A DNA stretch of 49,119 nt from a phage. The notes beneath the pieces are model-generated. The model did no database searches, was not told the origin of the DNA, and saw only the letters and a program-made list of their open reading frames with translations. Where the stretch lies: the sequence record PZ465523.1; one strand, given 5' to 3'. This document shows positions 2,236 to 49,119 of this stretch, in pieces (the first letter of the stretch is position 1; every line of letters begins with the position of its first letter). Made by a program: the position numbers and the translations under genes.

Positions 2236-2924
2236 TGTCATACGGTGCTTTTATAGATGTAAACGGAAACCCATTCATAACCCCGTTATCCACGCCATTC
2301 GCCTTATATGCGAGAGGGGAAATTCAATCAGTAAATGTTAGTGGTTCACAGGTTGCGGAGAGATATGTTCGGATACCTACAGGTGTTCCGGTTATAGCTT
2401 TTTGCAAAACAACAAACACGCAGCAGGGGACCGCGCTTTCAGCCTTTACTTTCAGAGATGGACCAAATGTTGGAACTGTTTACATAAGGGGGACAAATCC
2501 AGCAAACCAATCATACACGCTAACATATTACATATTTGCCATATTTGAGCAGTCACTACCGAGCTGGGGTATGGCAATATGGGATGCGTCAGGAAAGCTA
2601 GTGCTGACAAATGAGACAAAAGTCCTTAGTGATTTGGTTACAATCGGAACTCCTGGGTACGCTGGCGGTGGGCTAAACATAGACACAACACTCAGCGGAA
2701 GCTACGCAGTTGTCCCAACTATACTTGGCAACTATCAAATTGTTATCGGCAGATTGCCAACTGGGCAACCCATAATAGGAAACTCAACAGCAGGCAGTTC
2801 ATGCAGATACAACGGGAGCACAACGAGAATAAATGCAGCAGCAACCACTGCGGCAGGTCAGGTAATGAACACCACGAATAATGGAAATATTATAACAGCA
2901 ATAAAAACGGCAGCATACGACTAA
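2235..2924 (+). CDS. Hypothetical tail-region protein, possible receptor-binding accessory
   Basis: ATG overlaps upstream stop (TAATG); Gly/Thr/Asn-rich C-terminus. Confidence 0.55.
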   Translation: MSYGAFIDVNGNPFITPLSTPFALYARGEIQSVNVSGSQVAERYVRIPTGVPVIAFCKTTNTQQGTALSAFTFRDGPNVGTVYIRGTNPANQSYTLTYYIFAIFEQSLPSWGMAIWDASGKLVLTNETKVLSDLVTIGTPGYAGGGLNIDTTLSGSYAVVPTILGNYQIVIGRLPTGQPIIGNSTAGSSCRYNGSTTRINAAATTAAGQVMNTTNNGNIITAIKTAAYD

Positions 2925-2947
2925 GCCCCTTCCGGGGCTTTTCTTTT
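2924..2947. terminator. Hairpin terminator between convergent genes
   Basis: AGCCCCTTCCGGGGCT stem followed by T-run. Confidence 0.6.
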
Positions 2948-3173
2948 ACATCGAGCAATCGTGAGACTTGAAGTTATTCTCTGATACGTAGTTGAAGGAG
3001 AATGGGTATCCAGCACGTAACAGCATCTCATCACCGCGCATCTTAGATCCAAAAACGTAAACCGAGTAATCTTCACCGCCTGATTCATAAATTGCCGTAC
3101 AAGTGCGCTCAGGCATCGATGAACAACCAGTCAGGATGAATGCCGCAGTAATAATGGTGATTAACTTTTTCAT
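2946..3173 (-). CDS. cor: Cor-like superinfection-exclusion lipoprotein (75 aa)
   Basis: N-terminal signal peptide with lipobox (ILTGC); position after tail genes as in T1-like phages; RBS GAGGA before ATG at 3173. Confidence 0.6.
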   Translation of the reverse strand: MKKLITIITAAFILTGCSSMPERTCTAIYESGGEDYSVYVFGSKMRGDEMLLRAGYPFSFNYVSENNFKSHDCSM

Positions 3174-3698
3174 TTGTATGTCCTCGTCGTTAGTGTGATT
3201 GCATTGTATGTCGCATTTACTTTTATTGCAATAGCGCAATTACAATTTTTTTCGTGTAACGGGTGTCTATTTTTGTAACTGGAGATGGTGTTACAAAATC
3301 TACCACATCCGAACGCAGGTAGATATGATAAAAACTCTATATAATATATATAGATAGATAATATTTAATTTTAGCTTTATATATAATTATTGTTGTGTAA
3401 CAGTTGTCTATCGTGTAACAGGTGATTTTATTGATTCGTCAAATTTCTATCATATATGTTCAAAATTTAATCAATATTGATTCTATTCATGGATATCTGT
3501 GTATTTCTAAGAAAATGCTGTTACAAGTATTACACAATAGACACCACATAAAAACATTACTAAGATATTGATTGCGTTGACACTGGTTGTAACTTGAGCG
3601 ATATAGACACGCGGTTACACTCCAATTATATGTATTCTATTGACTAAACGCTGTTAATGGCTATAATTGACTCATCGTAAACGAAGGAGATAAACGCA
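3174..3698. promoter_or_regulatory. AT-rich divergent control region with GTTACA / TAGACA repeats and TA-repeat tract
   Basis: No plausible ORF; shares 13-mers GGTGTTACAAAAT (3287..3299) and AGATAGATAATAT (3352..3364) with region 22165..22856. Confidence 0.5.
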
Positions 3699-4763: not shown

Positions 4764-4837
4764 ACGGCACAAATAGCTAAACAAATAATTAATGAGGTGT
4801 TATAATGCACCTCACACACCAATCAGGAGAAGTTAAG

Positions 4838-5434
4838 ATGCAACTATCACCAGAAACCAACGAAATCCTTCCGGCTCTGTTCAATGCTCGCAACAAATTC
4901 GCGAAAGCAAAGAAGGATGCAAAAAACAATCACCTGAAAAACTCTTACGCAACGCTTGACGCAATGATGGCGGCAGTTAGCCCGGCGCTCACTGATAACG
5001 ATATTATGATCCTGCAATCAATGCTGGACACCAGCACGGAAACGACTTTCCATCTTGAGACGATGCTGATTCACAAATCCGGGCAGTGGGCTAAATTCTT
5101 CATGATGATGCCGATTGCAAAACGAGATCCGCAAGGAGTAGGTTCCGCAATGACGTATGCGCGACGTTACTCATTAGCCGCAGCGCTTGGAATTAGCCAA
5201 AGTGACGACGACGCGCAGCTTGCGGTGAAATCCGTCAAGGACTGGAAAAAAGAACTTGATGCGTGTGAAGATATCGAATCACTGAAAGAGGTATGGGCTA
5301 ACGCTTACCGCCAGACGGACACGGCGAGCAAGTCAATCATCCAGGATCACTACAACGCATTGAAGGCTAAGTTTGAGATCGGTAAAGCTCGCGGCATTCG
5401 CCCGGCGCAACCGGAACAGAAAAAAACAGGTTGA
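4838..5434 (+). CDS. erf: ERF-family single-strand annealing protein
   Basis: GSAMTYARRYSLAAALGI matches the ERF signature; start chosen at ATG after RBS CAGGAGA. Confidence 0.7.
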   Translation: MQLSPETNEILPALFNARNKFAKAKKDAKNNHLKNSYATLDAMMAAVSPALTDNDIMILQSMLDTSTETTFHLETMLIHKSGQWAKFFMMMPIAKRDPQGVGSAMTYARRYSLAAALGISQSDDDAQLAVKSVKDWKKELDACEDIESLKEVWANAYRQTDTASKSIIQDHYNALKAKFEIGKARGIRPAQPEQKKTG

Positions 5435-5533
5435 AGCAACGAGCGCGAAACCTGTACAATCTCAATCAATCACCAACTTTGAATAATCATTTCGGGCGGC
5501 TTCGGTCGCCCATAAATTTTAGGATAGAAAATC

Positions 5534-5977: not shown

Positions 5978-7481
5978 ATTTGGACTTCAATATTTTTATC
6001 TCTTCTTGTAACTCTTCAACTTTCTTTATTGTATCCTGTAAAGCTCTCATAGTGTCAAGCAATAAAGGAGTTGTATCAAGCTCAAGCCTTTCAACTTTTG
6101 GCCCGTTTAGCTCGTGGCTCTCATACACCCTTCTCTTAACATATAGATTGTCGATCTCTTCTATCTCCTGAGCTATAACACCTCGCCTTACCCTTTCTTG
6201 CTCATCATCGTTAAATATAAAGCTCCTAAATCTCATTGATTTTATATTGTTGTATGCAATGCTTGATTCATCATCCTTTATGCTGTGCTTTATATTTCTG
6301 TCAGATGCCGGAACTTGTTGGAAACTTCCAGCCCCTTGCGGTCCAGAGTAAGATATTTGCCCTGAAGCTATAAACCTGAAATGCATTTGCAGACCAATAT
6401 TGCCTGCTCCATCCCTATCTTGAACACCTACTGATATTTGTGCCCTGGGCCATTCAGCATTGCCAGTAGTCATCATGCCAAAAGCTACGCCGCCAACGTA
6501 TCCCTGACCTCTAGTGTCGCACGATCCAGCAATAAGTGATTGATAGTTTTCAACACCACTATTAGCGGTGTAAGCATTTCCTTGAAAGCATGAAGCGGAC
6601 CACATCTGGTTATAACCCATAGTTGTTTTCTGGCATAAAAACTGATTGGCCCTGAATCTATTGTTAGTCTCGAAGTAGTTTGCCCACTCATAAAATAATA
6701 AAGTCCCAGCATATCCATCACTGCTATTTTTTTTTCTGACGTAAATCCCTGGCTCAGACACTCCATCAGGTGACATAATCATCAATGATGACAATATGGA
6801 CTGACTACCCCAGTTAGAACCGTTCCATGAGTTCCTTCCTGCACCTATAGCACCAGTGGTGTTAATAGTAAGAAAGTTAACAGCATCATTTTCACCTAAC
6901 CCAATATTTTTTCTAGACTCTTTTTTGTTCATAAGACCAGAGAGATTACCATCCTTAGTTAAAAGATTATCGGCATTAATGCTATTAGCTGCGTCTTTAG
7001 CTTCTTGAGCGCTTACCGAAGCCGCATCTTTTGATCTTACGGCATCGTCACGCGCTAATTCAGCCTGATTTTGCGCAGCTTGAGAATCAGATTTCGCCTT
7101 ATTCACATCAGCAACTATTTGCTCAAGTTTATTCATATCAAGCTGATTTATCAGATCTATAGCTGCCGCGATCTCAGTCTCTTTGCTTTGATAGTATCGA
7201 AGCGTCTCGGCAACGTTTTGAGCTAAGCCGTTAACAGTTAACGAATCGTTAAGCAAGATCACATACTTTCCGTCAGATGCGGTCTGACCACCCGTAGAGA
7301 TAGCCTTTAGCTCTGTGTCGCTCACAATATCGCTAATCACCGCCAGCTTAATTGGTTGCTCCAGGAATACGATAGTTGCACCTACGCGAATCAAGGCAAG
7401 TTGATCTTTCCATTTTGTATCTGTTCCGTGAACCGTTCCGTCTGCATCCATTGATGCTGTACCGCGTCTATATAAAGCCAT
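5976..7481 (-). CDS. Tail fiber protein with C-terminal intramolecular-chaperone-like domain
   Basis: 501 aa; Ala/Gln-rich coiled region, Gly/Ser-rich distal part, C-terminal segment resembling self-cleaving chaperone domains; RBS AAGGAG. Confidence 0.7.
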   Translation of the reverse strand: MALYRRGTASMDADGTVHGTDTKWKDQLALIRVGATIVFLEQPIKLAVISDIVSDTELKAISTGGQTASDGKYVILLNDSLTVNGLAQNVAETLRYYQSKETEIAAAIDLINQLDMNKLEQIVADVNKAKSDSQAAQNQAELARDDAVRSKDAASVSAQEAKDAANSINADNLLTKDGNLSGLMNKKESRKNIGLGENDAVNFLTINTTGAIGAGRNSWNGSNWGSQSILSSLMIMSPDGVSEPGIYVRKKNSSDGYAGTLLFYEWANYFETNNRFRANQFLCQKTTMGYNQMWSASCFQGNAYTANSGVENYQSLIAGSCDTRGQGYVGGVAFGMMTTGNAEWPRAQISVGVQDRDGAGNIGLQMHFRFIASGQISYSGPQGAGSFQQVPASDRNIKHSIKDDESSIAYNNIKSMRFRSFIFNDDEQERVRRGVIAQEIEEIDNLYVKRRVYESHELNGPKVERLELDTTPLLLDTMRALQDTIKKVEELQEEIKILKSK

Positions 7482-7502
7482 AGTGTAAACTCCTTAAGTA
7501 AA

Positions 7503-7517
7503 TAGCACGAATTGCTA
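7503..7517. promoter_or_regulatory. Dyad box TAGCAcgaatTGCTA directly upstream of tail fiber RBS
   Basis: Palindromic core of the repeated box family; reversed relative to the tail fiber gene. Confidence 0.5.
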
Positions 7518-7561
7518 ATCACTGATTTTATCATTGTGTTACGAGTCTTGCAATGAGCAAC

Positions 7562-13421: not shown

Positions 13422-14573
13422 ATGTCACAAGCTAAAATCACCACCGAGCAACTTATCGAAGAGCGCATGAACGGCCTCACACTTCGCGAGATCGCGGAAA
13501 AGTACGGTATGCACATTCGCACTGTTGAAGCGCGCCATGCCAAGCTGGCAAAAGAAGGTCATTTCCACGGTAACGAGCATGTTGCTAAAAACGTGCCCGA
13601 GGGATTCATGGTAAAAGGCACGTCGACGATGATTCGAGGTGATGGGACCGAGGTAGTGCGCTGGGTAAAAACCGATCAGGACCGTGAGAAGATTGCAGCA
13701 ATGATGGAAGCGGCGCGCATTGCATTCTGTGAAGACCTGCCGCGAGCAAAGCCAACCGAGTTACTAACCTCGCAAGGGCTTACTACAGCTATGGGTAAGC
13801 TGGCACTATATCCGGTATTCGACCTGCACATTGGCGCGCTTGCTCACAAGCATGAATGCGGAGAGAACTACTCTACCGACGTAGCTGAAAAAGTGCTTGG
13901 CGACTTCTTCAATTACGCGATCGATATTGCTCCTAAAGCAGAGAAAGCTGTTCTGTTAATCGGCGGTGACTTCCTTCACTCTGACGGTCTTGATGCTGTT
14001 ACCCCGGCAAGCGGTCACGTTCTGGATCAGGATTCACGATACGCAAAATTGGTGCATGTTGCGATCCGTTCGGTGCGTCGCGCTATCGACAAAATGCTTA
14101 TGAAACACAAAGAAGTCGAGGTTCAGATTATTGAAGGGAACCACGACCAGGCCGGGATGATTTGGCTACGCGCTGCAATGTCGGCATATTATGAAGACGA
14201 GCCGCGAGTATTCGTTGACGTTAGCCCTATGATTCTGCATAAGACTCGATGGGGAAACACCTTATTGGGATACACTCACGGGCACACTATGAAAAAGGCA
14301 GACACGCGACTTGCAGCGATGGCGGCAGACTTCCGTGCAGACTTCGGAGAGAGCAAGTATGTGTATACTCATAGCGGTCACTGGCATCATCAGACAATCA
14401 CTGAACACTCGTTAGGTATCGATGAGGTTCACGGTCAGTTAGGAGCGAAGGATGCATACGCAGCACGAGGCGGGTGGCGCTCATATCGTCAGGCGGCGGT
14501 AATCGTTTACGACAAGCAATTTGGTGAGATAGGTCGATTCATCTACCGTCCAGAAATGACAGGATCGCATTAA
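13422..14573 (+). CDS. Metallophosphoesterase (calcineurin-like) with N-terminal HTH-like segment
   Basis: GDFLHSD, GNHD and GHTH-like metal-binding motifs. Confidence 0.6.
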   Translation: MSQAKITTEQLIEERMNGLTLREIAEKYGMHIRTVEARHAKLAKEGHFHGNEHVAKNVPEGFMVKGTSTMIRGDGTEVVRWVKTDQDREKIAAMMEAARIAFCEDLPRAKPTELLTSQGLTTAMGKLALYPVFDLHIGALAHKHECGENYSTDVAEKVLGDFFNYAIDIAPKAEKAVLLIGGDFLHSDGLDAVTPASGHVLDQDSRYAKLVHVAIRSVRRAIDKMLMKHKEVEVQIIEGNHDQAGMIWLRAAMSAYYEDEPRVFVDVSPMILHKTRWGNTLLGYTHGHTMKKADTRLAAMAADFRADFGESKYVYTHSGHWHHQTITEHSLGIDEVHGQLGAKDAYAARGGWRSYRQAAVIVYDKQFGEIGRFIYRPEMTGSH

Positions 14574-14607
14574 TTGCTAAAAATGCCCGAACGGATTCGG
14601 GTATAGT
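14568..14607 (+). promoter_or_regulatory. Box-type promoter: GCATTAATTGCTAAAA, 22 nt, TATAGT
   Basis: Gene stop TAA embedded in box; hairpin CCCGAA-cgga-TTCGGG in spacer. Confidence 0.55.
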
Positions 14608-14638
14608 GACCACATCTAAAACAAAGAGGATGCATATC

Positions 14639-14815
14639 ATGAAACGAGTTAAGTGCATCCGAAATGACTCAAAAACACTTCCATTCCGCGTAAATCAGAT
14701 TTATAGTGTTGGTTATGATTTCGGTGGTGGATTGTTTGAGATTTACGACGGGCAAGGTTCAGTAATCCAAGCACCTCTGAAAGGTAGCTATCTGGAATTT
14801 ATTGCGATAGATTAA
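14639..14815 (+). CDS. Small protein of the Cys beta-hairpin repeat family
   Basis: ATG after RBS AAAGAGG; VKCIRNDSKTLPFRVNQIYSV motif. Confidence 0.55.
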   Translation: MKRVKCIRNDSKTLPFRVNQIYSVGYDFGGGLFEIYDGQGSVIQAPLKGSYLEFIAID

Positions 14816-18437: not shown

Positions 18438-18466
18438 CACAATAAACTCCTTAGTTGACGGTGTGA

Positions 18467-18512
18467 ATGATACACCGCCAATGTTACACGCGTTTTGCAA
18501 AAAGTGCTATTG
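18467..18512 (-). promoter_or_regulatory. Box-type promoter: AATAGCACTTTTTGCAAAA, 22 nt, TATCAT
   Basis: Hairpin CGGTGT-atcattc-ACACCG downstream. Confidence 0.5.
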
Positions 18513-18513
18513 G

Positions 18514-18930
18514 TTATAAGTATTTGGCCTCAAAGGTTGTGCCGTCAGCAATACTAAAACCAATCTCTTCGCGGAATAATGTCCAGCGGCAACCGTCCTC
18601 ATCAAAGATGTAACCAGCCACTCCACCGAGAGCGCGACCGCTTTCCACCTGGTAACGCTTGCCAACTTTGAATGATTTTTTCATTGGGTTGCGATGGTCA
18701 AGCCCGGTACACTTGAGTGTTTTGGTTTTAAGTTCAGTGAATTTTGCGAAGAAGATTTCATCAGATCCGTGAATCTGTAATTCATCGTGCTTATCAAGTT
18801 TTAAATACTTACCGCACTTTAACTTAACCTCGCGAGTGCCATCGTAGCGTTCTCGACCTTTGTACATGTTGTTAACTTCAAATCCTGTGATTTTGTCTGC
18901 TGAAGTGCATTTAAGTTTGATGGATTTCAT
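18514..18930 (-). CDS. Cys beta-hairpin repeat family protein (2-3 repeats)
   Basis: Repeats IKLKCTSADKITGFEV / VKLKCGKY / LKCTGLDHRNPMKKSFKVGKRYQV; start at ATG 18930 after CAGGAG. Confidence 0.6.
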   Translation of the reverse strand: MKSIKLKCTSADKITGFEVNNMYKGRERYDGTREVKLKCGKYLKLDKHDELQIHGSDEIFFAKFTELKTKTLKCTGLDHRNPMKKSFKVGKRYQVESGRALGGVAGYIFDEDGCRWTLFREEIGFSIADGTTFEAKYL

Positions 18931-20569: not shown

Positions 20570-20600
20570 GATTCTTTCCTCGTTTGCTGTTGATGGGATG

Positions 20601-20645
20601 ACTATACCAGCCATCCCGGATGCGCGTTTAGCAAAAAGTGCTATC
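20601..20645 (-). promoter_or_regulatory. Box-type promoter: GATAGCACTTTTTGCTAAA, 22 nt, TATAGT
   Basis: Hairpin GGGATG...CATCCC overlapping the -10. Confidence 0.55.
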
Positions 20646-20646
20646 C

Positions 20647-20751
20647 TCAGCGACCAACTGCATCCATAATGATTAAGAACATGATCGCGACCAGGCATCC
20701 TGACAGAGAGAAAAGCACCGATCCAATTGCATAATTAAAAAACTTTGCCAT
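20647..20751 (-). CDS. Small membrane peptide (34 aa)
   Basis: MAKFFNYAIGSVLFSLSGCLVAIMFLIIMDAVGR; RBS GAGGG; stop abuts box. Confidence 0.45.
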   Translation of the reverse strand: MAKFFNYAIGSVLFSLSGCLVAIMFLIIMDAVGR

Positions 20752-20756
20752 AATTA

Positions 20757-20984
20757 CCCTCTGAAACTATCAATTGTGTCGTTGATGTATTTCACTTGAG
20801 CCTCTACGTCAGACGTTGCGATATACTGGAATGTATCGTAATCATCCCACAAGTCGACAAGCTCAACCTTTGTATGATGCTATTTTAAGCCGCCCATGTG
20901 ACCGTAATGTGTGCGGTAGACGATGAATCCCTCATCATTGGCGCGCTGAATTGCTTTCTTTAATCCGGGGTGTTTAATTGCCAC
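20757..20984 (-). pseudogene. Reading frame interrupted by a single in-frame TAG; possible pseudogene or readthrough gene
   Basis: GTG start, 34 codons, TAG at 20880..20882, then 41 more in-frame codons to TAA at 20754..20756. Confidence 0.3.
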
Positions 20985-21015
20985 TTGGTCATTTCTCTGA
21001 TTGGTTGATGTTTTA

Positions 21016-21060
21016 AATATACCCCGATCACCTTCGGGGCGTTTAGCAATTCGTGCTATT
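21016..21060 (-). promoter_or_regulatory. Box-type promoter: AATAGCACGAATTGCTAAA, 22 nt, TATATT
   Basis: Hairpin CCCCGA-aggtga-TCGGGG in spacer. Confidence 0.55.
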
Positions 21061-21394
21061 AATCAATATCGAACTCAGCGGCATACGCTTTCTTGAAGCC
21101 AGCTTCACGCATGGTGCGCTTGCTGATTTTGCGCGGGAATTTGTACTGGCTGTTAGGCATAACCCACCAGAAGCAAGCAGTTTCACGAACGATTTCATAT
21201 TTACCGTAACGGGTGAAGGTGTCACGTTCCGCGTCCGGCTGGTTAACACAGGTCAGGAATTTAGCCGCTTTGTCTTCAGTTTTGATTTCTTCCCATACGA
21301 AGGAATCCATACCGTTAACATTGCAAGCTACCATGATGTACTCAACGCCGTTTTCGATTTTGATGATTTCGTTACCGCGATTTTCGTATTTCAT
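21059..21394 (-). CDS. Hypothetical protein (111 aa)
   Basis: ATG with RBS AGGAGCAGGAAA; C-terminus reads through the box. Confidence 0.5.
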   Translation of the reverse strand: MKYENRGNEIIKIENGVEYIMVACNVNGMDSFVWEEIKTEDKAAKFLTCVNQPDAERDTFTRYGKYEIVRETACFWWVMPNSQYKFPRKISKRTMREAGFKKAYAAEFDID

Positions 21395-21432
21395 TTTCCT
21401 GCTCCTGATGTGTATCTCGTTTCGATGAGGTA

Positions 21433-21478
21433 ATTATGCCAAACTACCCCGATCGAGTTTTAACAAAAAGTGCTATTT
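21433..21478 (-). promoter_or_regulatory. Box-type promoter: AAATAGCACTTTTTGTTAAAA, 22 nt, CATAAT
   Basis: Box encodes the Dcm C-terminus NSTFC and its stop. Confidence 0.55.
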
Positions 21479-22164
21479 GCGATCGCTTTGAAAAATCCAC
21501 GCGGCGACAGGGATCGTATCAGTTTGGTCTTTGCCGACTTGCCGCCCAACTTGCTATGCTGCGCAGAGTACCCTTCAGGAAGGCTTACAGGTTTTCTCTC
21601 CGGCATGACAAAATCGTCCGAGGTCCAAAGACACGTCTTTTTCGGATAAGCATCGCGCGGCGCAATATACATCGGGAACCAGGGATGCGAGTCATTCTCA
21701 GGAAGATAGCCGCCATACTCCCAGGGATTGAATGAGTGATCTGGTTTTCTCCAGGCAGATGACAGAACGCTAACCGGATTCTCAATGATGTAAGTCACGC
21801 CCAGGGCGTCGCCAATATTCGCAGCAATCCGGGCGGTGGCAACGGCCTTCTCCTGGAATAAGGGATTGCGCTTACGCTTACTTGCAAAGTGACGAGCACC
21901 ACTAACAGCCAGGTCAGTGCATGGAGGAAAGGCCATAATGAAATCCGGCTTACCATACACACCCGCAATCGCATCACGTTCGAACGTCTCATCAATGAAG
22001 ACGTTCACATACTCAATGTTCGGATGCTGTACCCGAGCATTGTACTTTGCATAATCTCCGTGATCGGCCCCGTCAAAGTTGAAGCACATCACCTTATGAC
22101 CTTGCTTAGCCAGTTCATGACCAGCAAGGCCGGAACCGTCGAATAGTGACCAAATTAGTTTCAT
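21460..22164 (-). CDS. dcm: DNA cytosine-5 methyltransferase
   Basis: LFDGSGLAG (motif I-like), FPPCTDLAVSG (motif IV PC), IIENP (motif VI ENV); start at ATG 22164 after AGGAGA. Confidence 0.7.
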   Translation of the reverse strand: MKLIWSLFDGSGLAGHELAKQGHKVMCFNFDGADHGDYAKYNARVQHPNIEYVNVFIDETFERDAIAGVYGKPDFIMAFPPCTDLAVSGARHFASKRKRNPLFQEKAVATARIAANIGDALGVTYIIENPVSVLSSAWRKPDHSFNPWEYGGYLPENDSHPWFPMYIAPRDAYPKKTCLWTSDDFVMPERKPVSLPEGYSAQHSKLGGKSAKTKLIRSLSPRGFFKAIANSTFC

Positions 22165-22197
22165 TGCAAATCTCCTGCTGATTGGTTGATGTGATGA

Positions 22198-22242
22198 ATC
22201 ATACCCTGCCAACATAGCTAAGTCGTTAGCAAAAAATGCTAT
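22198..22242 (-). promoter_or_regulatory. Box-type promoter variant: AATAGCATTTTTTGCTAAC, 23 nt, TATGAT
   Basis: Immediately upstream of Dcm leader CAACCAATCAGCAGGAG. Confidence 0.5.
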
Positions 22243-22427
22243 TCCAATAGTTGCTCATTATTCCATCAATAGTGGAATAGTTGGAATAATTTTGATTGTG
22301 ATTGATTGCGAATGATTAAACGTGATTATTGCATTGTGTGCAACAGTTGGTTGATTTGTTGATGAGAATGCAATGATTGTGAGAGGGAGGATTTAGTGTT
22401 ACCCGGTTCGCTTGGTAGTCACCTCCA

Positions 22428-22447
22428 TTTTTAGCAAAAAGTGCTAT
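22428..22447 (-). promoter_or_regulatory. Box GATAGCACTTTTTGCTAAAA without a matching -10 at the usual spacing
   Basis: Distal-most box of the leftward arm, followed by hairpin GGAGG...CCTCC. Confidence 0.45.
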
Positions 22448-22856
22448 CCGTCTATATCTTCGTTGTAATTGTCGTAATAGTTGTATACTATCGGGGGTGT
22501 TACAAAATGGCCCCGAAGGGATGGGCCTATATATACTAAAATATCTATATATAATAATAAGATAGATAATATATATATATTTATTTATTATATTATATAT
22601 TGGTATGTAATCGGCGTAATAGGTGCAACCGCATTTTTGGAAGGTGGCATATATTTCAGGGTGCATAGTATAAAAAACATACTATTCCGCGCGTCGAAAT
22701 GGATGTGTGTGCTTTTATAGAAAAAGTCGGTTGCATCGGTTGCACTGGTTACAAAAATAAAAAATGCAGCTATAGACATTGACGCGCCTAGCCAGGTTGC
22801 TGTAACATGTTTTTCGGGGCGGCAAGTTACGCCCGTAGACAACGAGGTATAGACAA

Positions 22857-23432
22857 ATGAAAACTCAGCTTAAAGAAGTAACGGAATTCGAACTCAACTT
22901 GCCGGACTACATTCGCAAGGCGATTGAAAATCACCGTTCAGGGAGTGAGTTCTCAATCACCGGAAAGCAAATGGTAGCTATCTACGTGCATGAGCAAGCC
23001 GAGATCGTAAAGATCACTCAGGATGTTGAGCTAACCGAGGACCAGATTGATGAGGCTATCATTAACGAGTACACGTCGCGCTCAGCCTGGTTGCTCGAAC
23101 GACTCACCGCTTCGTATGTTTCCAATATCATCAAGCGCCACATGCTCAAGGTGCATAACAAGGCCGTGTCGGTTCGAATCAATCGCGATCAGGTGGATGG
23201 CGTGACGATATTCATCACTGAACTGGAAGGTGAGGAAGCAGAAAAGGTCATAGGCGAAGCGAAACAGGGAAAGAGAGGACGGAAGCGTAAGAGCGTAGCC
23301 GATGTGTTCAATGCGAAGGTTGAGGCGTTCAGAATCGATCTGAGAGAGTTTGAAGGAAGCAACATCTCGGTATCGGATCTCAATAAACTGGTGGAGCAAT
23401 TCCGCGCACATTTACTGGGTGAGGAGAAGTAA
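22857..23432 (+). CDS. Hypothetical early protein (191 aa)
   Basis: First gene of rightward early operon; acidic protein with Lys/Arg cluster KQGKRGRKRK. Confidence 0.55.
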   Translation: MKTQLKEVTEFELNLPDYIRKAIENHRSGSEFSITGKQMVAIYVHEQAEIVKITQDVELTEDQIDEAIINEYTSRSAWLLERLTASYVSNIIKRHMLKVHNKAVSVRINRDQVDGVTIFITELEGEEAEKVIGEAKQGKRGRKRKSVADVFNAKVEAFRIDLREFEGSNISVSDLNKLVEQFRAHLLGEEK

Positions 23433-26530: not shown

Positions 26531-26890
26531 ATGAAACACTTAATTTGCATTGAAACGCCTAACGATGAATACACTCTTCACGGTATCGGAATGTTCAAAG
26601 GTCACTACATGACAGCAAGCATTCATGATGCGCGACTATGCGATGGCGATCTGATGATTATATCAAAAGAAGTAAATCCGTACATTATGCAGAATCTTGG
26701 CAATAACGAATATATGGCATACGGCTGCAACGCCGTGTACAAGCATATCAAGATCCGCAAGCGTGTCGTGCGTGCATTCAAGAAGATTGCAATGAAATAC
26801 TGGAAGATGAGCAAGAAGGACGCCGGACGCTGGCGCGCAATGTTGCTGACTCGTACTTCTATCGTAACGGTGAGTCCCGCTACTTCCTGA
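26531..26890 (+). CDS. Hypothetical protein; C-terminal region may continue in another frame
   Basis: RBS CGAGGAA; alternative frame 26707..26976 encodes a more protein-like tail ending SCW. Confidence 0.45.
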   Translation: MKHLICIETPNDEYTLHGIGMFKGHYMTASIHDARLCDGDLMIISKEVNPYIMQNLGNNEYMAYGCNAVYKHIKIRKRVVRAFKKIAMKYWKMSKKDAGRWRAMLLTRTSIVTVSPATS

Positions 26891-26974
26891 TCGATGAAAT
26901 TATGGAAAGCTACGGCGGCGACTTCAGCCAGTGTAGCTTTGACGATTGGGCTGATTATGAGATCAGTTGCTGGT

Positions 26975-27262: not shown

Positions 27263-27795
27263 TGGATAAAATCACAATTTGGGGTCAGACAATCAACCTG
27301 TTTCTCGGCACTCGCCGCGTGGCAATCTTTGACTTCGACGGAACACTGAGTGACGGCTCAAAACGTCTTCACCTGCTACCGACGAAAGATTTGCACTTAA
27401 CGGAAAGCTGGTCTGAGTTCAACCGCGCGGCAATATTTGACAATCCTATCCGTAGTACGATTGATGTGATGAACTCTATGTTTGCCGCTGGGTATCATGT
27501 GATTATTTTAACCGGGCGAAGCGATGAGGTGCGTTACGCATCTGAGTTATGGCTTAAGCATCACGGCGCTCGATATGATTACTTAGTCATGAGGCCGCAT
27601 ACCGACAACCGCAAAGACACGGTAATGAAAGAAGAGGCTGTGCGCGCGATCGGCATTGATAACATTCTGGCGGCCTGGGATGACTCACCGCAAATTATTC
27701 CATTATTCCGATCGCTTGGAATAACCACGTATGCCGTAGTTGACTATGGCGATAACGTTCACGACCATTTAAAATCTCACGGGGTGGATGAGTGA
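27262..27795 (+). CDS. HAD-superfamily phosphatase (polynucleotide 3'-phosphatase-like)
   Basis: DxDGT motif FDFDGTL near N-terminus; later TGR and DD motifs; start overlaps upstream stop. Confidence 0.65.
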   Translation: MDKITIWGQTINLFLGTRRVAIFDFDGTLSDGSKRLHLLPTKDLHLTESWSEFNRAAIFDNPIRSTIDVMNSMFAAGYHVIILTGRSDEVRYASELWLKHHGARYDYLVMRPHTDNRKDTVMKEEAVRAIGIDNILAAWDDSPQIIPLFRSLGITTYAVVDYGDNVHDHLKSHGVDE

Positions 27796-27907
27796 ACCTA
27801 TACGAATTTATTGCAGCACATCCTGTATTGACGGTTATCATCCTGTTAATCATCAATCACACTATCATCAATGTGGCAAAATTATTTTTAGGGAGATACT
27901 AACATGA
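27788..27907 (+). CDS. Cys/His-rich 39-aa peptide between phosphatase and kinase
   Basis: ATG overlaps phosphatase 3' end; stop TGA overlaps kinase ATG (ATGA); sequence MSEPIRIYCSTSCIDGYHPVNHQSHYHQCGKIIFREILT. Confidence 0.4.
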   Translation: MSEPIRIYCSTSCIDGYHPVNHQSHYHQCGKIIFREILT

Positions 27908-32525: not shown

Positions 32526-33809
32526 ATGAAAATTGTTAAACATGATGGATATAACGATATTTTTAACGGCGGTGCAGATGGATCGCCTAAGCCATTCTTT
32601 ATGTCTGATGCATCATATCACGTCGGTTCTTTCTACAACGACAACGCAACCGCGAAGCGAATTGTGGATGTTATCCCGGAAGAGATGGTGACGGCTGGCT
32701 TTAAAATGTCAGGTGTTAAGGATGAAAAAGAGTTCAAGTCTTTATGGGATAGCTACAAACTTGATTCAAGTCTGGTGGATCTTCTTTGTTGGGCGAGACT
32801 TTACGGTGGCGCGGCGATGGTGGCAATCATCAAAGACAACCGGATGTTAACCAGTCAGGCAAAGCCTGGAGCTAAACTTGAAGGCGTCCGAGTTTACGAT
32901 CGATTTGCTATCACTGTTGAAAAGCGAGTCACCAATGCAAGATCCCCTCGCTATGGTGAGCCTGAAATCTACAAGGTATCCCCTGGCGACAATATGCAGC
33001 CGTATCTGATTCATCACTCAAGAGTCTTTATTGCTGATGGTGAGCGAGTAACGCAACAGGCAAGAAAACAGAATCAAGGATGGGGAGCATCGGTATTGAA
33101 CAAGTCACTGATTGATGCAATCTGTGACTATGATTACTGTGAATCTCTGGCTACTCAGATCTTGAGACGTAAGCAACAGGCTGTATGGAAGGTCAAAGGT
33201 CTTGCCGAAATGTGTGATGATGATGATGCTCAGTACGCCGCGCGCCTGCGACTTGCTCAGGTTGATGATAACTCCGGCGTGGGCCGTGCGATCGGTATCG
33301 ATGCTGAGACTGAGGAATATGACGTTCTCAACTCTGATATCAGCGGAGTTCCTGAGTTCTTATCAAGCAAGATGGACCGCATCGTCTCCCTGTCAGGTAT
33401 TCATGAGATTATCATCAAGAATAAGAACGTAGGCGGCGTATCAGCGAGCCAAAACACAGCGCTTGAGACTTTCTATAAGCTAGTCGATCGCAAACGCGAG
33501 GAAGATTACAGGCCGCTTCTTGAGTTCTTGTTGCCGTTCATTGTTGATGAGGAAGAGTGGTCGATCGAGTTTGAGCCTTTGTCTGTTCCGAGTAAGAAAG
33601 AGGAATCAGAGATCACGAAGAATAACGTTGAGTCGGTTACGAAAGCTATCACTGAGCAAATCATCGATCTGGAAGAAGCTCGCGACACGTTGCGATCCAT
33701 TGCCCCTGAGTTCAAACTCAAGGATGGTAATAACATCAACATTCGCGAACCGGAAGAAACAACCGAACCGGAACCGGGATTAGGGGAGAAGTTAGAAGAT
33801 GAAAATTAA
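32526..33809 (+). CDS. Portal protein
   Basis: Size and position after terminase; start after RBS GGAGGAAAC. Confidence 0.7.
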   Translation: MKIVKHDGYNDIFNGGADGSPKPFFMSDASYHVGSFYNDNATAKRIVDVIPEEMVTAGFKMSGVKDEKEFKSLWDSYKLDSSLVDLLCWARLYGGAAMVAIIKDNRMLTSQAKPGAKLEGVRVYDRFAITVEKRVTNARSPRYGEPEIYKVSPGDNMQPYLIHHSRVFIADGERVTQQARKQNQGWGASVLNKSLIDAICDYDYCESLATQILRRKQQAVWKVKGLAEMCDDDDAQYAARLRLAQVDDNSGVGRAIGIDAETEEYDVLNSDISGVPEFLSSKMDRIVSLSGIHEIIIKNKNVGGVSASQNTALETFYKLVDRKREEDYRPLLEFLLPFIVDEEEWSIEFEPLSVPSKKEESEITKNNVESVTKAITEQIIDLEEARDTLRSIAPEFKLKDGNNINIREPEETTEPEPGLGEKLEDEN

Positions 33810-34551
33810 TGGCGTTGCAACACAGTGGCGCTATCCTGAAATGAGCGAGCGCGCAATGTCGCGCTCCCTACAGGATGTTGCAGCCAAACTAACTGAGAAA
33901 ATGCGTGACGAATTAAAACCGATGAAATTTGACGCTACTGACGAAGAGATAGATCAGACAGAAAGGTCATTGCTTGATTACGTCGAATCACTCATCGCTC
34001 CGATTATTGGTTCTCTATCATCCGTTGCGCTCACGATCTATAAATTCAACTCTAAGCAGTGGCTGCGCATCGCTCGAAATTCTGGAGGTAAGAAGAATCA
34101 AGCCGTGATGCTACTTGCCCTGATTGGTCCTACCGCTGCCGAAAGCTGGTACTCAGGACAATATAATCTATGGCGATCGCAGGTGACTACTTCTATCAGG
34201 AAATTTGCTGCCAACATGGTTACTGATTTCACTGATAAACTTCGTGCTGCATCCGGTCAGGGTAAAAGCAAGGATTTTGTTGTTGAACTTGCTAATGAGC
34301 GATTTGGTGTTTACCGGAATTGGGCCAAAAATAGAGCGTCGGGAATTGTTGGAACCTGGAACAGTAGACTAATGCGTCAGCGCATAAAAGACGCTGGAGT
34401 CTCTTACTATTTCTGGCGCGGGGTGATGGATTTACGCGAACGTGAAAAACATGTAAGATGGGAAGGTAAGCGCATAGCGGTAGATTCCGATCACGTATTC
34501 CCAGGTGAGGAATACAATTGCCGCTGTTGGGCTGTTCCATCGTTCACATAA
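33799..34551 (+). CDS. Head morphogenesis / minor capsid protein
   Basis: Position after portal; start overlaps portal stop. Confidence 0.55.
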   Translation: MKINGVATQWRYPEMSERAMSRSLQDVAAKLTEKMRDELKPMKFDATDEEIDQTERSLLDYVESLIAPIIGSLSSVALTIYKFNSKQWLRIARNSGGKKNQAVMLLALIGPTAAESWYSGQYNLWRSQVTTSIRKFAANMVTDFTDKLRAASGQGKSKDFVVELANERFGVYRNWAKNRASGIVGTWNSRLMRQRIKDAGVSYYFWRGVMDLREREKHVRWEGKRIAVDSDHVFPGEEYNCRCWAVPSFT

Positions 34552-34566
34552 AGGAGGTGCTGAATA

Positions 34567-35049
34567 GTGAATTTTAATGATTTGTTTTACCATGAAGGAA
34601 AGGATCTCATATGAAAGGTTAGCACATCAAGAAGGGTAAAGGTTGGTGATGTAGCAGGATGGAAGGATGAGCTAGGGTATGTTTATGTAAGAGTTAACGG
34701 TAAGCTAATTCCTGCTCATAGGATAATATGGGAGATGCACTACGGAAAAATTCCAGAAGGTATGGAGATAGACCACATAAATCATATAACCGACGATAAC
34801 AGGATTGAAAACTTAAGGCTGGTAACGAGGAAAGATAACTGCAAAAACGTATCCATGAGCAAATCTAACAAGAGCGGAGTGGTTGGAGTTAGCTGGTGCA
34901 AAAGGACTTGCAAATGGTTTGCATCAATTAGAGTTGATAGAAAGGAAAAGTTTTTGGGTAGATATGATAAAATTGAGGATGCAGCAGCAGCAAGAAAGGC
35001 GGCTGAGTTAAAATACAATTTTCACAAAAATCACGGGAGTAAAAAATGA
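34567..35049 (+). pseudogene. HNH homing endonuclease with AP2-like domain, interrupted by in-frame TGA at 34612..34614
   Basis: Strong RBS AAGGAGGTG + GTG 34567; TGA at codon 16; downstream EIDHINHITDDNRIENLRL...DNCKN and AP2-like WCKRTCKWFASIRVDRK. Confidence 0.55.
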
Positions 35050-36158
35050 AGGCAAAGCAAAGATTCGATTCAGTAAAAATCAAGGCGCACTTTGATGATA
35101 ACGGTTTTTTAGTTGACCGCCCAATCGTGGCGCGAATCGGCGCTCAGGTTTACAAAACTCCTCACGGCGATCGGGTTGAGTTCCGTCCGGCGTCCGAAGT
35201 TTTCAAGCAAGATTCCTTGCAAAGTTTTGCAGGCAAGCCGATCACAGTCGGTCACGTAACGGTGACTCCCCAAAATGCTAAGGACGTTGTTGTCGGATCG
35301 TGTGCTGGCGCTGGTATTGCTTCAGGGGTTGGCGTTGAAGTTCCTTTGAGTATTTACAGCGACTACGCGATCAGCAAAGCTAAAGCAAAAGAAGCGGGTG
35401 AATTATCTGTTGGCTACACGTCAGTAGATATTGATAAGCCTGGATGGGGTTCTAACGAGACTGGGGAATATATCTTCGAAGAGGATATGAAGCAGGATGA
35501 AGCACCGCCGGAAGGCTGGGTTAAATTTGACGCGGTACAGACTAATATCAAGGTCAACCATATCGCACTAGTTTTCAAGGGTCGTGCTGGAATTGCTAAA
35601 TTAAACCTTGATGCTGAACAGGAATTTCCGTATGATAATAACGTTCAATTAACTAACGAGGACAAGCAAATGAAAAAAATCAAGATCGACTCCGTTGATG
35701 TGGAAGTAACCGAAGACGTTGCTAACCATATCGAAAAATTAACCGCACAGATTGCCACCATTCAGGGGAAAGCTGATGGCTTCGAAGCTGAGCGCGACGC
35801 TCTTAAGGTTAAGGTTGATTCTATTCCTGAACTTGTAAAAGCAGAAGTAGAGAAGCAGAAAGCTGACGCCGCAGCACGTGCAGAAGTTACCGCAGTAGCA
35901 GAAACCGCAGGCGTCAAACATGATGGTCTTGATATCAAAGACGTCAAGATTGCCGTAGTTAAAGCCATGCTTGATAAAGATGTTAGTGAAAAATCAGACG
36001 CATATATCGACGCTATGTTTGATGTTGCTAAAGATTCTGATATCATGGCTATTCAGCGTAAAGCAGTAAAAGGCGACTCTATCGAAGATGGCAAGCAGGA
36101 AGAGAAAAACGACGCCGCACCTGTTACGCCAAATTCACGTTTAAGCAAAGTAATGTAA
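35046..36158 (+). CDS. Head scaffolding-like protein
   Basis: Position before capsid genes; C-terminal coiled-coil rich in A/E/K. Confidence 0.5.
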   Translation: MKAKQRFDSVKIKAHFDDNGFLVDRPIVARIGAQVYKTPHGDRVEFRPASEVFKQDSLQSFAGKPITVGHVTVTPQNAKDVVVGSCAGAGIASGVGVEVPLSIYSDYAISKAKAKEAGELSVGYTSVDIDKPGWGSNETGEYIFEEDMKQDEAPPEGWVKFDAVQTNIKVNHIALVFKGRAGIAKLNLDAEQEFPYDNNVQLTNEDKQMKKIKIDSVDVEVTEDVANHIEKLTAQIATIQGKADGFEAERDALKVKVDSIPELVKAEVEKQKADAAARAEVTAVAETAGVKHDGLDIKDVKIAVVKAMLDKDVSEKSDAYIDAMFDVAKDSDIMAIQRKAVKGDSIEDGKQEEKNDAAPVTPNSRLSKVM

Positions 36159-47462: not shown

Positions 47463-49119
47463 ATGATTCAAAAAGTGATAAGCGGATCGAAAGGCGGTTC
47501 ATCTAAGCCGCATAAGCCAGTTGAGATGGAAGATAATCTAATCTCAATCAACAAAATCAAGATCCTGTTAGCTGTGTCTGATGGCGAGATTGACGAAACA
47601 TTCAGCCTAAAGCAGTTGATGTTTAACTCAGTCCCTGTGCAAAACGAGGATGGCTCATTTAACTTCGAGGGAGTAAATGCAGAGTTTAGGCCGGGGACGC
47701 AGACTCAGGAATATATCAAGGGGATGGAAGATAGCTCTAGTGAGGTAACTGTAAGCCGTGAGGTTACTACAGATAACCCATACACGATCTCAGTAACCAA
47801 CAAAACGCTTTCGGCAATCCGTATCAAAATGTTTATGCCTCGCGGCGTACGAATTGAAAGCAACGGTGATAAAAACGGCGTAAGAGTTGAGTATGAGGTG
47901 CAACAAGCTGTTGATGGCGGCTCGTTTGAGACGGTGCTCACCGATGTAATCGAAGGCAAAACAATGTCAGGTTATGATCGAAGCAGACGCATAAACCTTC
48001 CGAGCTTTAACAATCAGGTGATATTCAGAGTCGTTCGCAAAACTCCAGACTCTAACGATTCGAACGTGGTCGATGCTATTCAAGTGAAAAGCTACGCCGA
48101 GGTGATTGATGCAAAATTCCGTTACCCTCTGACTGGTCTTCTTTTCGTCGAGTTCGATTCGAAGATGTTCCCAAATCAGTTACCTACGATCTCAATTCGT
48201 AAGCGCTGGAAGATTGTAAACGTTCCGTCAAACTATGATCCAGAATCACGAACTTATAACGGAAATTGGGATGGAACTTTTAAGAAGGCGTGGACTAATA
48301 ATCCGGCTTGGGTGCTTTATGACCTGATGATTAATCAGCGTTATGGGCTGGATCAGAAAGAGCTTGGAATATCTGTCGATAAATGGGCGCTATATGAGGC
48401 GGCGCAATATTGCGACCAGATGGTTCCTGACGGAAAAGGCGGTACTGAGCCTCGCTACCTTTGCGACGTGATAATTCAGTCACAGACTGATGCGTACAAG
48501 GTGATTCGAGATATTTGCTCAATCTTCCGTGGAATGAGCTTTTGGAATGGTGAAAGCATTTCGGTAATCATCGACAGGCCGCGTGAACCTGCGTACATCT
48601 TCACTAACGACAACGTTGTTAACGGTGACTTCTCCTATACTTTCGCAAGCGAGAAAAGTATGTACACGACGTGCAACGTGATGTTTGATGATGAACAAAA
48701 CATGTATCAGCAGGACGTTGAGCCAGTATTCGATCGAGAAGCCACTCTACGGTTCGGGAATAACGTAACAAGCATTACAGCGATCGGGTGCACACGTCGA
48801 AGTGAAGCTAACCGTCGCGGACGATGGATTCTGAAAACAAACCTTCGCAGCACTACGGTAAACTTTGCTACCGGGCTTGAGGGTATGATTCCGACAATTG
48901 GAGATGTTGTAGCGATAGCTGATAACTTCTGGTCAAGTAACTTGACTATGAACCTGTCAGGGCGTTTGCTCGAAGTGTCTGGAAGTCAGATTTTCCTGCC
49001 GTTCCGCGTTGATGCTCGCGCAGGTGACTTTATTATCGTAAATAAGCCCGATGGCAAGCCCGCGAAGCGCACAATCTCAAGTGTTAGTGCGGATGGTAAG
49101 ACTATAGAGGTTAACATCG
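47463..49119 (+). CDS. Tail tip / host specificity protein (lambda J-like), N-terminal part; runs off window end and continues at 1..1884
   Basis: No stop before window end; frame continuous with 1..1884 through the repeat; about 1139 aa in total. Confidence 0.8.
   Translation, partial: MIQKVISGSKGGSSKPHKPVEMEDNLISINKIKILLAVSDGEIDETFSLKQLMFNSVPVQNEDGSFNFEGVNAEFRPGTQTQEYIKGMEDSSSEVTVSREVTTDNPYTISVTNKTLSAIRIKMFMPRGVRIESNGDKNGVRVEYEVQQAVDGGSFETVLTDVIEGKTMSGYDRSRRINLPSFNNQVIFRVVRKTPDSNDSNVVDAIQVKSYAEVIDAKFRYPLTGLLFVEFDSKMFPNQLPTISIRKRWKIVNVPSNYDPESRTYNGNWDGTFKKAWTNNPAWVLYDLMINQRYGLDQKELGISVDKWALYEAAQYCDQMVPDGKGGTEPRYLCDVIIQSQTDAYKVIRDICSIFRGMSFWNGESISVIIDRPREPAYIFTNDNVVNGDFSYTFASEKSMYTTCNVMFDDEQNMYQQDVEPVFDREATLRFGNNVTSITAIGCTRRSEANRRGRWILKTNLRSTTVNFATGLEGMIPTIGDVVAIADNFWSSNLTMNLSGRLLEVSGSQIFLPFRVDARAGDFIIVNKPDGKPAKRTISSVSADGKTIEVNI
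48999..49119. repeat. Terminal direct repeat, copy 2; identical to 1..121
   Basis: Exact identity read directly. Confidence 0.9.

Follow-up and report, generated by a model that had tools for sequence, protein, structure and literature searches.

The stretch of DNA analysed here (sequence record PZ465523.1, 49,119 nt, referred to below as the window) carries a 160-codon homing endonuclease gene (HEG), free-standing and of HNH-AP2 type, in which the TGG of a conserved tryptophan has become an opal stop codon, TGA, at codon 16. The locus is probably a young null or leaky allele of this gene, at an early stage of degeneration. The initial annotation had identified an HNH-AP2 homing endonuclease at this position, and this was right, given the HNH_3 domain, the I-HmuI-like fold, the AP2-like tail and the presence/absence polymorphism of the insert described below.

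The window is the genome of a Tunavirus (T1-like, Drexlerviridae), with approximately 92-95% identity to phages phiL, Shfl1, Eco_BIFF and T1. An exact repeat of 121 nt was present at its two ends, and it therefore represents a circularly closed assembly of approximately 48,998 bp, which opens inside a large tail protein gene. On the 5' side of the endonuclease gene are the portal gene and the gene for a Mu-F-like head morphogenesis protein, and a DUF2213 prohead protease/scaffold gene lies 3' of it. The location between head morphogenesis and scaffold genes, as first described, was confirmed by the Pfam matches on the two sides. The components of the locus, other than the endonuclease frame itself, are:

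33799..34551, + strand: Mu F-like head morphogenesis gene, 250 aa (Pfam Phage_Mu_F; 97.6% amino acid identity to T1 ST51)
34540..35045, + strand: inserted segment of 506 nt, a mobile element (from comparison of the junctions in the window, T1 and ESCO41)
35035..35039, + strand: Shine-Dalgarno sequence GGGAG of the protease gene, 6 nt before its ATG at 35046 and within the 3' end of the endonuclease gene (from the sequence; the same 3' end, CACGGGAGTAAAAAATGA, is found in ESCO41)
35046..36158, + strand: prohead protease/scaffold gene (Pfam DUF2213; 98.9% amino acid identity to T1 ST50)

The ATG of the protease gene overlaps the stop codon of the endonuclease gene (ATGA). As the protease gene has its own Shine-Dalgarno sequence, it should not need translation of the endonuclease gene. 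A tblastn search of the window for paralogues of the endonuclease gene returned only the locus itself. The T1 genes ST63, ST15 and ST8 are all absent from the window, and when used as queries they matched the endonuclease locus only; one of these three HNH genes of T1 survives in the window solely as a 3' remnant of 25 residues.

The reading frame of the endonuclease gene was divided as follows:

34551..34559, + strand: Shine-Dalgarno sequence AAGGAGGTG of the endonuclease gene, 7 nt before the GTG (from the sequence; the same start is annotated in phage vB_EcoS_ULIM2)
34567..34614, + strand: GTG start, 15 sense codons (NFNDLFYHEGKDLI) and premature TGA (from translation)
34612..34614, + strand: premature opal TGA, followed by A, in place of the Trp16 codon TGG (from alignments with ULIM2 and four other contigs)
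34615..35049, + strand: remaining endonuclease frame, codons 17-160 and the TGA stop, undamaged (from translation; one synonymous difference from ULIM2)
34735..35049, + strand: open reading frame from an internal ATG, 104 aa, Met57 to the end (from the sequence; 104-aa equivalents are called on two contigs with other disrupted alleles, SRR32903161_56529 and ERZ15185608 NODE_80)

The strong ribosome-binding site and GTG start that had been proposed were both found, and translation of 34567-35049 likewise agreed with the earlier description of a TGA after 15 codons with the same frame continuing beyond it. Past this TGA the frame is open for 145 further codons, to the TGA at 35047-35049, and the two other forward frames across the locus are full of stops. 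No in-frame ATG, GTG or TTG was found between the premature TGA and the ATG at 34735. No uninterrupted frame at the locus is able to yield the whole HNH domain: one is broken by the TGA at codon 16, and the next in-frame start, Met57, lies past the invariant His51. Reinitiation immediately after the stop was considered and rejected, as the ATG that overlaps the TGA (ATATGA) belongs to another frame, which encodes only MKG*. The 104-aa open reading frame is what a gene caller would report for this locus.

With the TGA read as tryptophan, the 160-aa product matched Pfam HNH_3 (PF13392) over residues 50-91 with E = 5.5e-23 and 80.8 bits (cut-off 24.8). A profile was built from an alignment of 63 homologues, in which D69, H70, N82 and N94 are invariant. 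This family profile matched the homing endonuclease I-HmuI (1U3E) over residues 1-98 (E = 1.2e-7) and, over the tail, the plant AP2 protein WRI1 (E = 2.4e-4). The AlphaFold model of the 160-aa protein had a pLDDT of 89.6. A Foldseek search with this model ranked I-HmuI first (probability 1.0), followed by the AP2 domains of TEM1, WRI1 and AtERF1 (approximately 1.0). Three domains were delimited:

34567..34713, + strand: N-terminal beta-sheet domain (residues 1-49) that resembles the N-terminal domain with which I-HmuI contacts DNA (AlphaFold model; profile and fold matches to 1U3E)
34762..34848, + strand: HNH beta-beta-alpha metal core, residues 66-94, EIDHINH...NLRLVTRKDN (Pfam HNH_3; invariant columns; model)
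34873..35013, + strand: AP2-like DNA-binding domain, residues 103-149, three strands and a helix (subthreshold Pfam AP2; WRI1 profile match; Foldseek)

In the model, the N-terminal domain has strands at residues 7-10, 13-16, 39-43 and 46-49 and is followed by a helix at 50-59. The HNH core is formed by strands 66-70 and 83-87 and helix 88-92, and the AP2-like fold by strands 108-111, 116-123 and 126-133 and helix 136-149, and this part resembles AP2 domains of known structure. The HNH core that had been read from the sequence was thus borne out by both the Pfam match and the fold. The AP2-like tail also held up, through the WRI1 profile match and Foldseek, though the AP2 profile (PF00847) itself remained below the Pfam threshold (19.7 bits against 33.3, E = 1e-3); some of the homologues have a precomputed PF00847 hit. 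Judged from the HNH_3 match and from the identity at 481 of 483 nt to the annotated intact gene of ULIM2, the endonuclease frame is not a chance open reading frame.

The 506-nt insert replaces 23 nt (GACTTTTCTACAGGAGATTAAAA) found in T1-like phages that lack the HEG. In T1, these 23 nt encode the C-terminal end of the Mu-F-like protein and contain the Shine-Dalgarno sequence of the protease gene. From the insert, the upstream gene gains a different C-terminus and stop codon; the insert also has a strong Shine-Dalgarno sequence of its own and brings the GGGAG sequence for the protease gene. The Mu-F-like protein of the window accordingly ends in ..AVPSFT*, with the final codons and the stop (TAA, 34549-34551) contributed by the insert, and the T1 version ends in ..AVPDFSTGD*. 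No promoter or terminator of its own was found within the insert, with the counts for the region equal to the expectation from shuffled sequence.

The initial annotation had suggested comparison with related phages for the presence or absence of the insert. Among 63 phage records with flanks at least 90% identical to those of the window, only one, vB_EcoS_ULIM2, contains the insert. It alone covered the whole of a 1.6-kb query, and the other records aligned as two pieces with a net gap of 483 nt. An 83%-identical homologue at the same junction and with the same 3' end is present in ESCO41, and many drexlerviruses of Klebsiella and E. coli have approximately 80%-identical homologues directly 5' of their head maturation protease gene. 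In IMG/VR, nothing closer than the ESCO41-type homologue (83%) was detected. The HEG is 97.5-99.6% identical between carriers, compared with 92-96% for the flanking genes; this higher similarity could in principle also reflect local constraint. The GC content is 38.3% in the insert versus 45.3% in the genome, and the C content of the insert is the lowest of any 483-nt stretch in the genome. The claim that this is a typical homing site is supported by the homologous genes that fill the same site in other drexlerviruses and by the precision of the presence/absence polymorphism. Precise polymorphism, discordant history and a recurrent site are characteristic of free-standing homing endonuclease genes, and, as far as these comparisons of sequence indicate, the intact enzyme would be expected to cleave and to home.

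The gene of ULIM2 (WPJ70019.1, OQ850291) is intact, being annotated as a 160-aa coding sequence with TGG at codon 16. The window and ULIM2 genes differ at 2 of 483 nt, namely codon 16 (TGA/TGG) and one synonymous site (AGA/AGG). Trp16 is conserved in at least 90% of the 63 homologues. Approximately 27 distinct intact alleles that are at least 97% identical are public, and in those that were read Trp16 is present and the HNH core invariant. Every other allele read at codon 16 has TGG, and the changed base, 34614, is G in all of them. Alignment with intact HNH-AP2 genes had been proposed as a check, and this is its outcome. Given the conservation of Trp16 and the TGG of ULIM2, the TGA is a private G>A transition and not a case of recoding or programmed readthrough. 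As the rest of the gene is intact, the lesion would be very recent.

Three further disruptions of the same gene, each independent, were found in public assemblies. In Logan contig SRR32903161_56529, Trp32 is changed from TGG to TGA; in ENA contig ERZ15185608 NODE_80 (49.4 kb), Gly31 is changed from GGA to TGA; and in ENA contigs ERZ27280763 and ERZ28620279, a 1-nt deletion in a GGG run shifts the frame at codon 23/24 and leads to TAA at codon 24. Disrupted alleles thus make up approximately 4 of 31 distinct natural alleles. Decay of a homing endonuclease, the first of the alternatives offered in the initial annotation, is the best supported of them. The exact TGA allele was found nowhere else, and a 32-mer of either allele was absent from JGI metagenomes, IMG/VR and GTDB genomes. 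Neither the 104-aa open reading frame of the window nor its Mu-F-like protein nor its protease has an exact match on record.

Reassignment of TGA to tryptophan, as in a code 4-like genetic code, was rejected, as TGA terminates 13 of 41 long open reading frames in the window, the endonuclease gene included. Approximately 70 homologues of T1 genes in the window have no in-frame stop. Expression by opal readthrough, which had also been proposed, was not supported in a conserved or programmed form, as the stop is private to the window and conserved in no homologue. Passive leakiness is still plausible. The stop is followed by A, and in E. coli it is UGA-A that tRNA-Trp is reported to misread most readily (PMC5289835, citing Engelberg-Kulka 1981). 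Readthrough of UGA by Trp-tRNA is approximately 2-4% in E. coli K-12 (PMC10570021). As tryptophan would be the residue inserted, readthrough would restore exactly the wild-type enzyme in small amounts, and the mutation may thus leave a little activity (a weak hypomorph) instead of none.

A sequencing or assembly error at 34614 was weighed against a real mutation. If the phage truly had TGG at 34612-34614, the gene would be an ordinary intact one encoding a protein identical to that of ULIM2. This is unlikely, and the G>A change is very probably a real mutation. An error would account for a single-base lesion in a gene that otherwise matches the intact allele save at one synonymous site, for the position of the change (GGAA>GAAA) at a homopolymer boundary, and for the failure to find the exact TGA allele elsewhere in the databases searched. 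It is also in keeping with two other private one-base homopolymer frameshifts of the window, in genes that are intact in all the relatives compared: A6>A7 near the end of an Erf-like recombinase gene (5420-5426) and GGG>GG in the ST65 homologue (26832). The three private lesions are, however, all in dispensable-looking genes, with the packaging, head and tail genes clean, as expected of real mutations under selection. In comparisons with T1, phiL and Shfl1, the window had 6 private one-base indels, of which these two are real frameshifts in conserved genes; the others are intergenic, in sequence that has diverged, or at the boundary of the insert. For T1 itself the count was 18, most of them apparently close to annotated terminators or in diverged stretches, where they may be compensated. 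The two private frameshifts could indicate a somewhat error-prone consensus. The 121-nt terminal repeat is typical of short-read de Bruijn-graph assembly, in which substitutions in the consensus should be rare. The disrupted fraction of the natural alleles places the prior for a real lesion near 10%, compared with below approximately 1% for a random stop-creating error in a gene of 483 nt, even for a poor assembly (76 of 1449 substitutions are nonsense).

A real lesion could still be more than simple decay, as the four independent lesions all lie in codons 16-32 of the 160 and all leave the 104-codon open reading frame and the ATGA overlap with the essential protease gene intact. With equal mutational opportunity, the probability that all four fall in the first 56 codons is ~0.016; for the first 32 codons it is ~0.002, a threshold set after the fact. 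The bias towards discovery of early lesions seems small, as later truncations also leave detectable open reading frames; the sample is four. There is a slight chance that the clustering stems from selection that favours attenuating the nuclease, early or in a leaky way, with translation of the 3' two-thirds kept. If this were true, the 3' translation might serve coupling to the protease gene, or yield a DNA-binding HNH-AP2 remnant that protects the site. It is similarly improbable that the early opal codon is itself favoured as a leaky down-regulator, with a few per cent of wild-type enzyme retaining some homing or immunity at a lower cost or toxicity. This idea would fit the UGA-A context with insertion of the wild-type residue, the absence of further damage elsewhere in the gene, and the second independent allele in which a tryptophan codon is changed from TGG to TGA followed by A (SRR32903161_56529, with the same ATGGAAGG context). 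It would also fit the use of TGA in three of three nonsense alleles (P ~0.03 under equal opportunity). Against it, the TGA at Gly31 is followed by T, and readthrough there would give Gly31Trp at a nearly invariant glycine. The fourth allele is a frameshift, and the set of lesions resembles knock-outs. All ten of the possible transition-type nonsense changes fall at tryptophan codons, and changes from tryptophan to stop are thus expected from mutation bias, which would explain part of the lesion pattern. The stop is conserved in no homologue, and the pattern was noticed after the fact among only four lesions. The Gly31 and frameshift alleles argue, from their sequences, for plain knock-outs over selected leakiness. 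Even less probable, to the point of being very doubtful, is initiation at the internal ATG 34735, raised in the initial annotation, to give a functional 104-aa HNH and AP2-like protein, either active or acting as a DNA-binding regulator. The 104-codon frame is intact here and in all the other disrupted alleles, all four lesions are 5' of this ATG (at the probability given above for the first 56 codons), and the product would retain an HNH_3 match (E = 5.5e-17) and the AP2-like domain. In addition, an internal in-frame product (ST63A) was proposed by the T1 annotators for a homologous HNH gene. Missing from this product would nevertheless be two invariant residues (Tyr38 and His51) and seven nearly invariant ones (Trp16, Gly31, Gly37, Arg52, Ile53, Trp55 and Glu56), together with the entire N-terminal sheet and the greater part of helix 50-59; in I-HmuI, this sheet and helix belong to the module for DNA binding and catalysis. 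There is no well-spaced Shine-Dalgarno sequence, as GGGAG is directly adjacent to the ATG and AGGA is 11 nt upstream, and Met57 is an ordinary conserved residue of the family core and is no evidence of a start. An active product from this ATG is therefore unlikely.

For the preferred explanation, a decaying homing endonuclease gene, the following course of events is suggested. The intact enzyme would cut or nick the HEG-less junction of a related phage during co-infection, and the recipient would acquire the 506-nt insert, along with part of its flanks, through repair templated by the HEG-carrying genome. The insert would give the upstream gene a new end, and the downstream gene a Shine-Dalgarno sequence and an overlapping start context, and because of this it should cost the phage little. 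A single G>A transition at 34614 would then have converted the conserved Trp16 codon to the opal codon. Translation would end after 15 residues, making the allele effectively null, and the HEG would be entering the degeneration phase of its life cycle. Readthrough of the UGA-A, by possibly a few per cent of ribosomes, would give the exact wild-type protein.

This is an ordinary, well-understood element at a recurrent homing site of drexlerviruses, and the clustering of early lesions is only a mildly interesting point; no long-standing question is opened by the finding. The locus provides a natural snapshot of the invasion, degeneration and loss of a HEG, as an otherwise perfect copy with one nonsense change, with the three other early lesions of this gene occurring in environmental relatives and the three HNH genes of T1 missing from the same genome. 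An annotation should describe the locus as a disrupted gene of 160 codons and should not list the 104-aa open reading frame that starts at ATG 34735 as a working HNH endonuclease.

Among known systems, programmed opal readthrough has a UGA followed by A and low-frequency decoding by Trp-tRNA in common with this locus; in the coat/A1 gene of phage Q-beta, the UGA is read by tRNA-Trp. The stop described here differs in being private to one genome and located at a conserved tryptophan inside a domain, rather than being conserved and placed between two functional products. The closest solved structure is that of I-HmuI of Bacillus phage SPO1 (PDB 1U3E), a nicking enzyme, whose N-terminal sheet and HNH core align over residues 1-98. 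I-HmuI has only approximately 23% identity, is intron-encoded, and has a C-terminal DNA-binding part that is not AP2. No biochemically tested HNH-AP2 enzyme close to the window protein was found in the literature and databases searched. Phage HEGs that combine HNH with AP2 at the C-terminus have been described as a family (PMC10448857, citing Magnani 2004), and gp115-gp116 of ICP1 is a frameshift-inactivated HNH-AP2 HEG (PMC10448857). The members of this type (IPA-HNH of ICP1; ST63, ST15 and ST8 of T1; phiYeO3-12 gp1.45-like) have the same architecture of N-terminal HNH and C-terminal AP2. They are likewise free-standing, small and overlapping with the start of the downstream gene, and inactivated copies are known. 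The three T1 proteins have 39-52% amino acid identity to the window protein but are encoded at sites other than the Mu-F/protease junction. The HNH gene of ULIM2 shares the site, the GTG start, the 160-codon length and the protease overlap, and differs only in the TGG at codon 16 and the one synonymous change, although its flanking genes are only 94.6-96.3% identical to those of the window. ULIM2, with the intact gene, and the window phage, with the TGA, therefore form a convenient pair for the study of homing and of UGA leakiness in T1-like phages.

The endonuclease gene at 34567-35049, which carries Trp16>TGA (34612-34614) in the window, was found in public assemblies with three more independent lesions:

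Logan contig SRR32903161_56529, 1643-2125: endonuclease gene with Trp32>TGA
ENA contig ERZ15185608 NODE_80, 2833-3315: endonuclease gene with Gly31>TGA
ENA contigs ERZ27280763 and ERZ28620279: endonuclease gene with a 1-nt deletion leading to TAA at codon 24

With that of the window included, all four lesions fall within codons 16-32. The nonsense changes, present in the window and in the Logan and NODE_80 contigs, are all opal, and the two Trp>TGA changes (window and Logan contig) share a common context, ATGGAAGG>ATGAAAGG. Among the public proteins that are near-identical to the endonuclease and lack the lesion, one member of 142 aa (P0014, from a 628-nt ENA contig) has the C-terminus ..KIGRASCRERV. 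This tail looks like a translated Illumina adapter, and would thus reflect adapter sequence left at the end of the contig, not variation in the gene.

The flanks of the insert were compared with those of phage vB_EcoS_ULIM2, which carries the intact gene at the same site. No identity gradient was seen between the window and ULIM2 to the left of the insert. The first ~300 nt of the prohead protease gene, adjoining the insert on the right (35050-35350), are 98% identical between the two phages, and identity falls to 85-96% past this point. The high-identity stretch could be a co-conversion tract from homing.

Two one-base frameshifts private to the window are located elsewhere:

4805-5483: Erf-like recombinase gene, lesion in the A-run at 5420-5426
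26531-26973: homologue of T1 ST65, lesion at 26832

The A-run of the Erf-like gene has seven A in the window and six in T1, UP30, CLB_P3 and Shfl1, and the frameshift replaces the final ~20 residues of the protein with a 2-residue out-of-frame tail (..PEQKKTG*). The extra A reflects either a genuine mutation or an error in the homopolymer. In the ST65 homologue, GG at 26832 replaces the GGG of T1, Shfl1 and SA32RD, shifting the frame past codon 101. This lesion is recent, or an error, because the 47 residues beyond it are still 89% conserved when read in the other frame.

Nucleotides 1-121 of the window are an exact direct repeat of 48999-49119, and both copies belong to the gene for the large tail protein (T1 ST33 homologue), which is divided between the window ends. 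The window is an assembly closed as a circle of ~48,998 bp, probably made by a de Bruijn-graph assembler (k = 121). The repeat does not mark a physical end of the genome. The homologue of the T1 tail fibre protein ST26 (6897-7534, minus strand) is conserved over its first ~190 residues only (72%), and its receptor-binding part is different from T1's. The region ~20570-23425 is without counterpart among T1's annotated proteins; ST72-ST76 are missing, and ST77 has only a weak partial match.

None of the three HNH endonuclease genes of T1 (ST63, ST15 and ST8) was present at its T1 site in the window. The stretches concerned are 18440-18514 (minus strand), 27789-27904 and 14558-14639. Their sole leftover is a 25-residue remnant of the ST8 3' end, 84% identical, which adjoins the helicase gene, directly upstream. 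This leaves the disrupted gene at 34567 as the genome's single HNH-AP2 gene.
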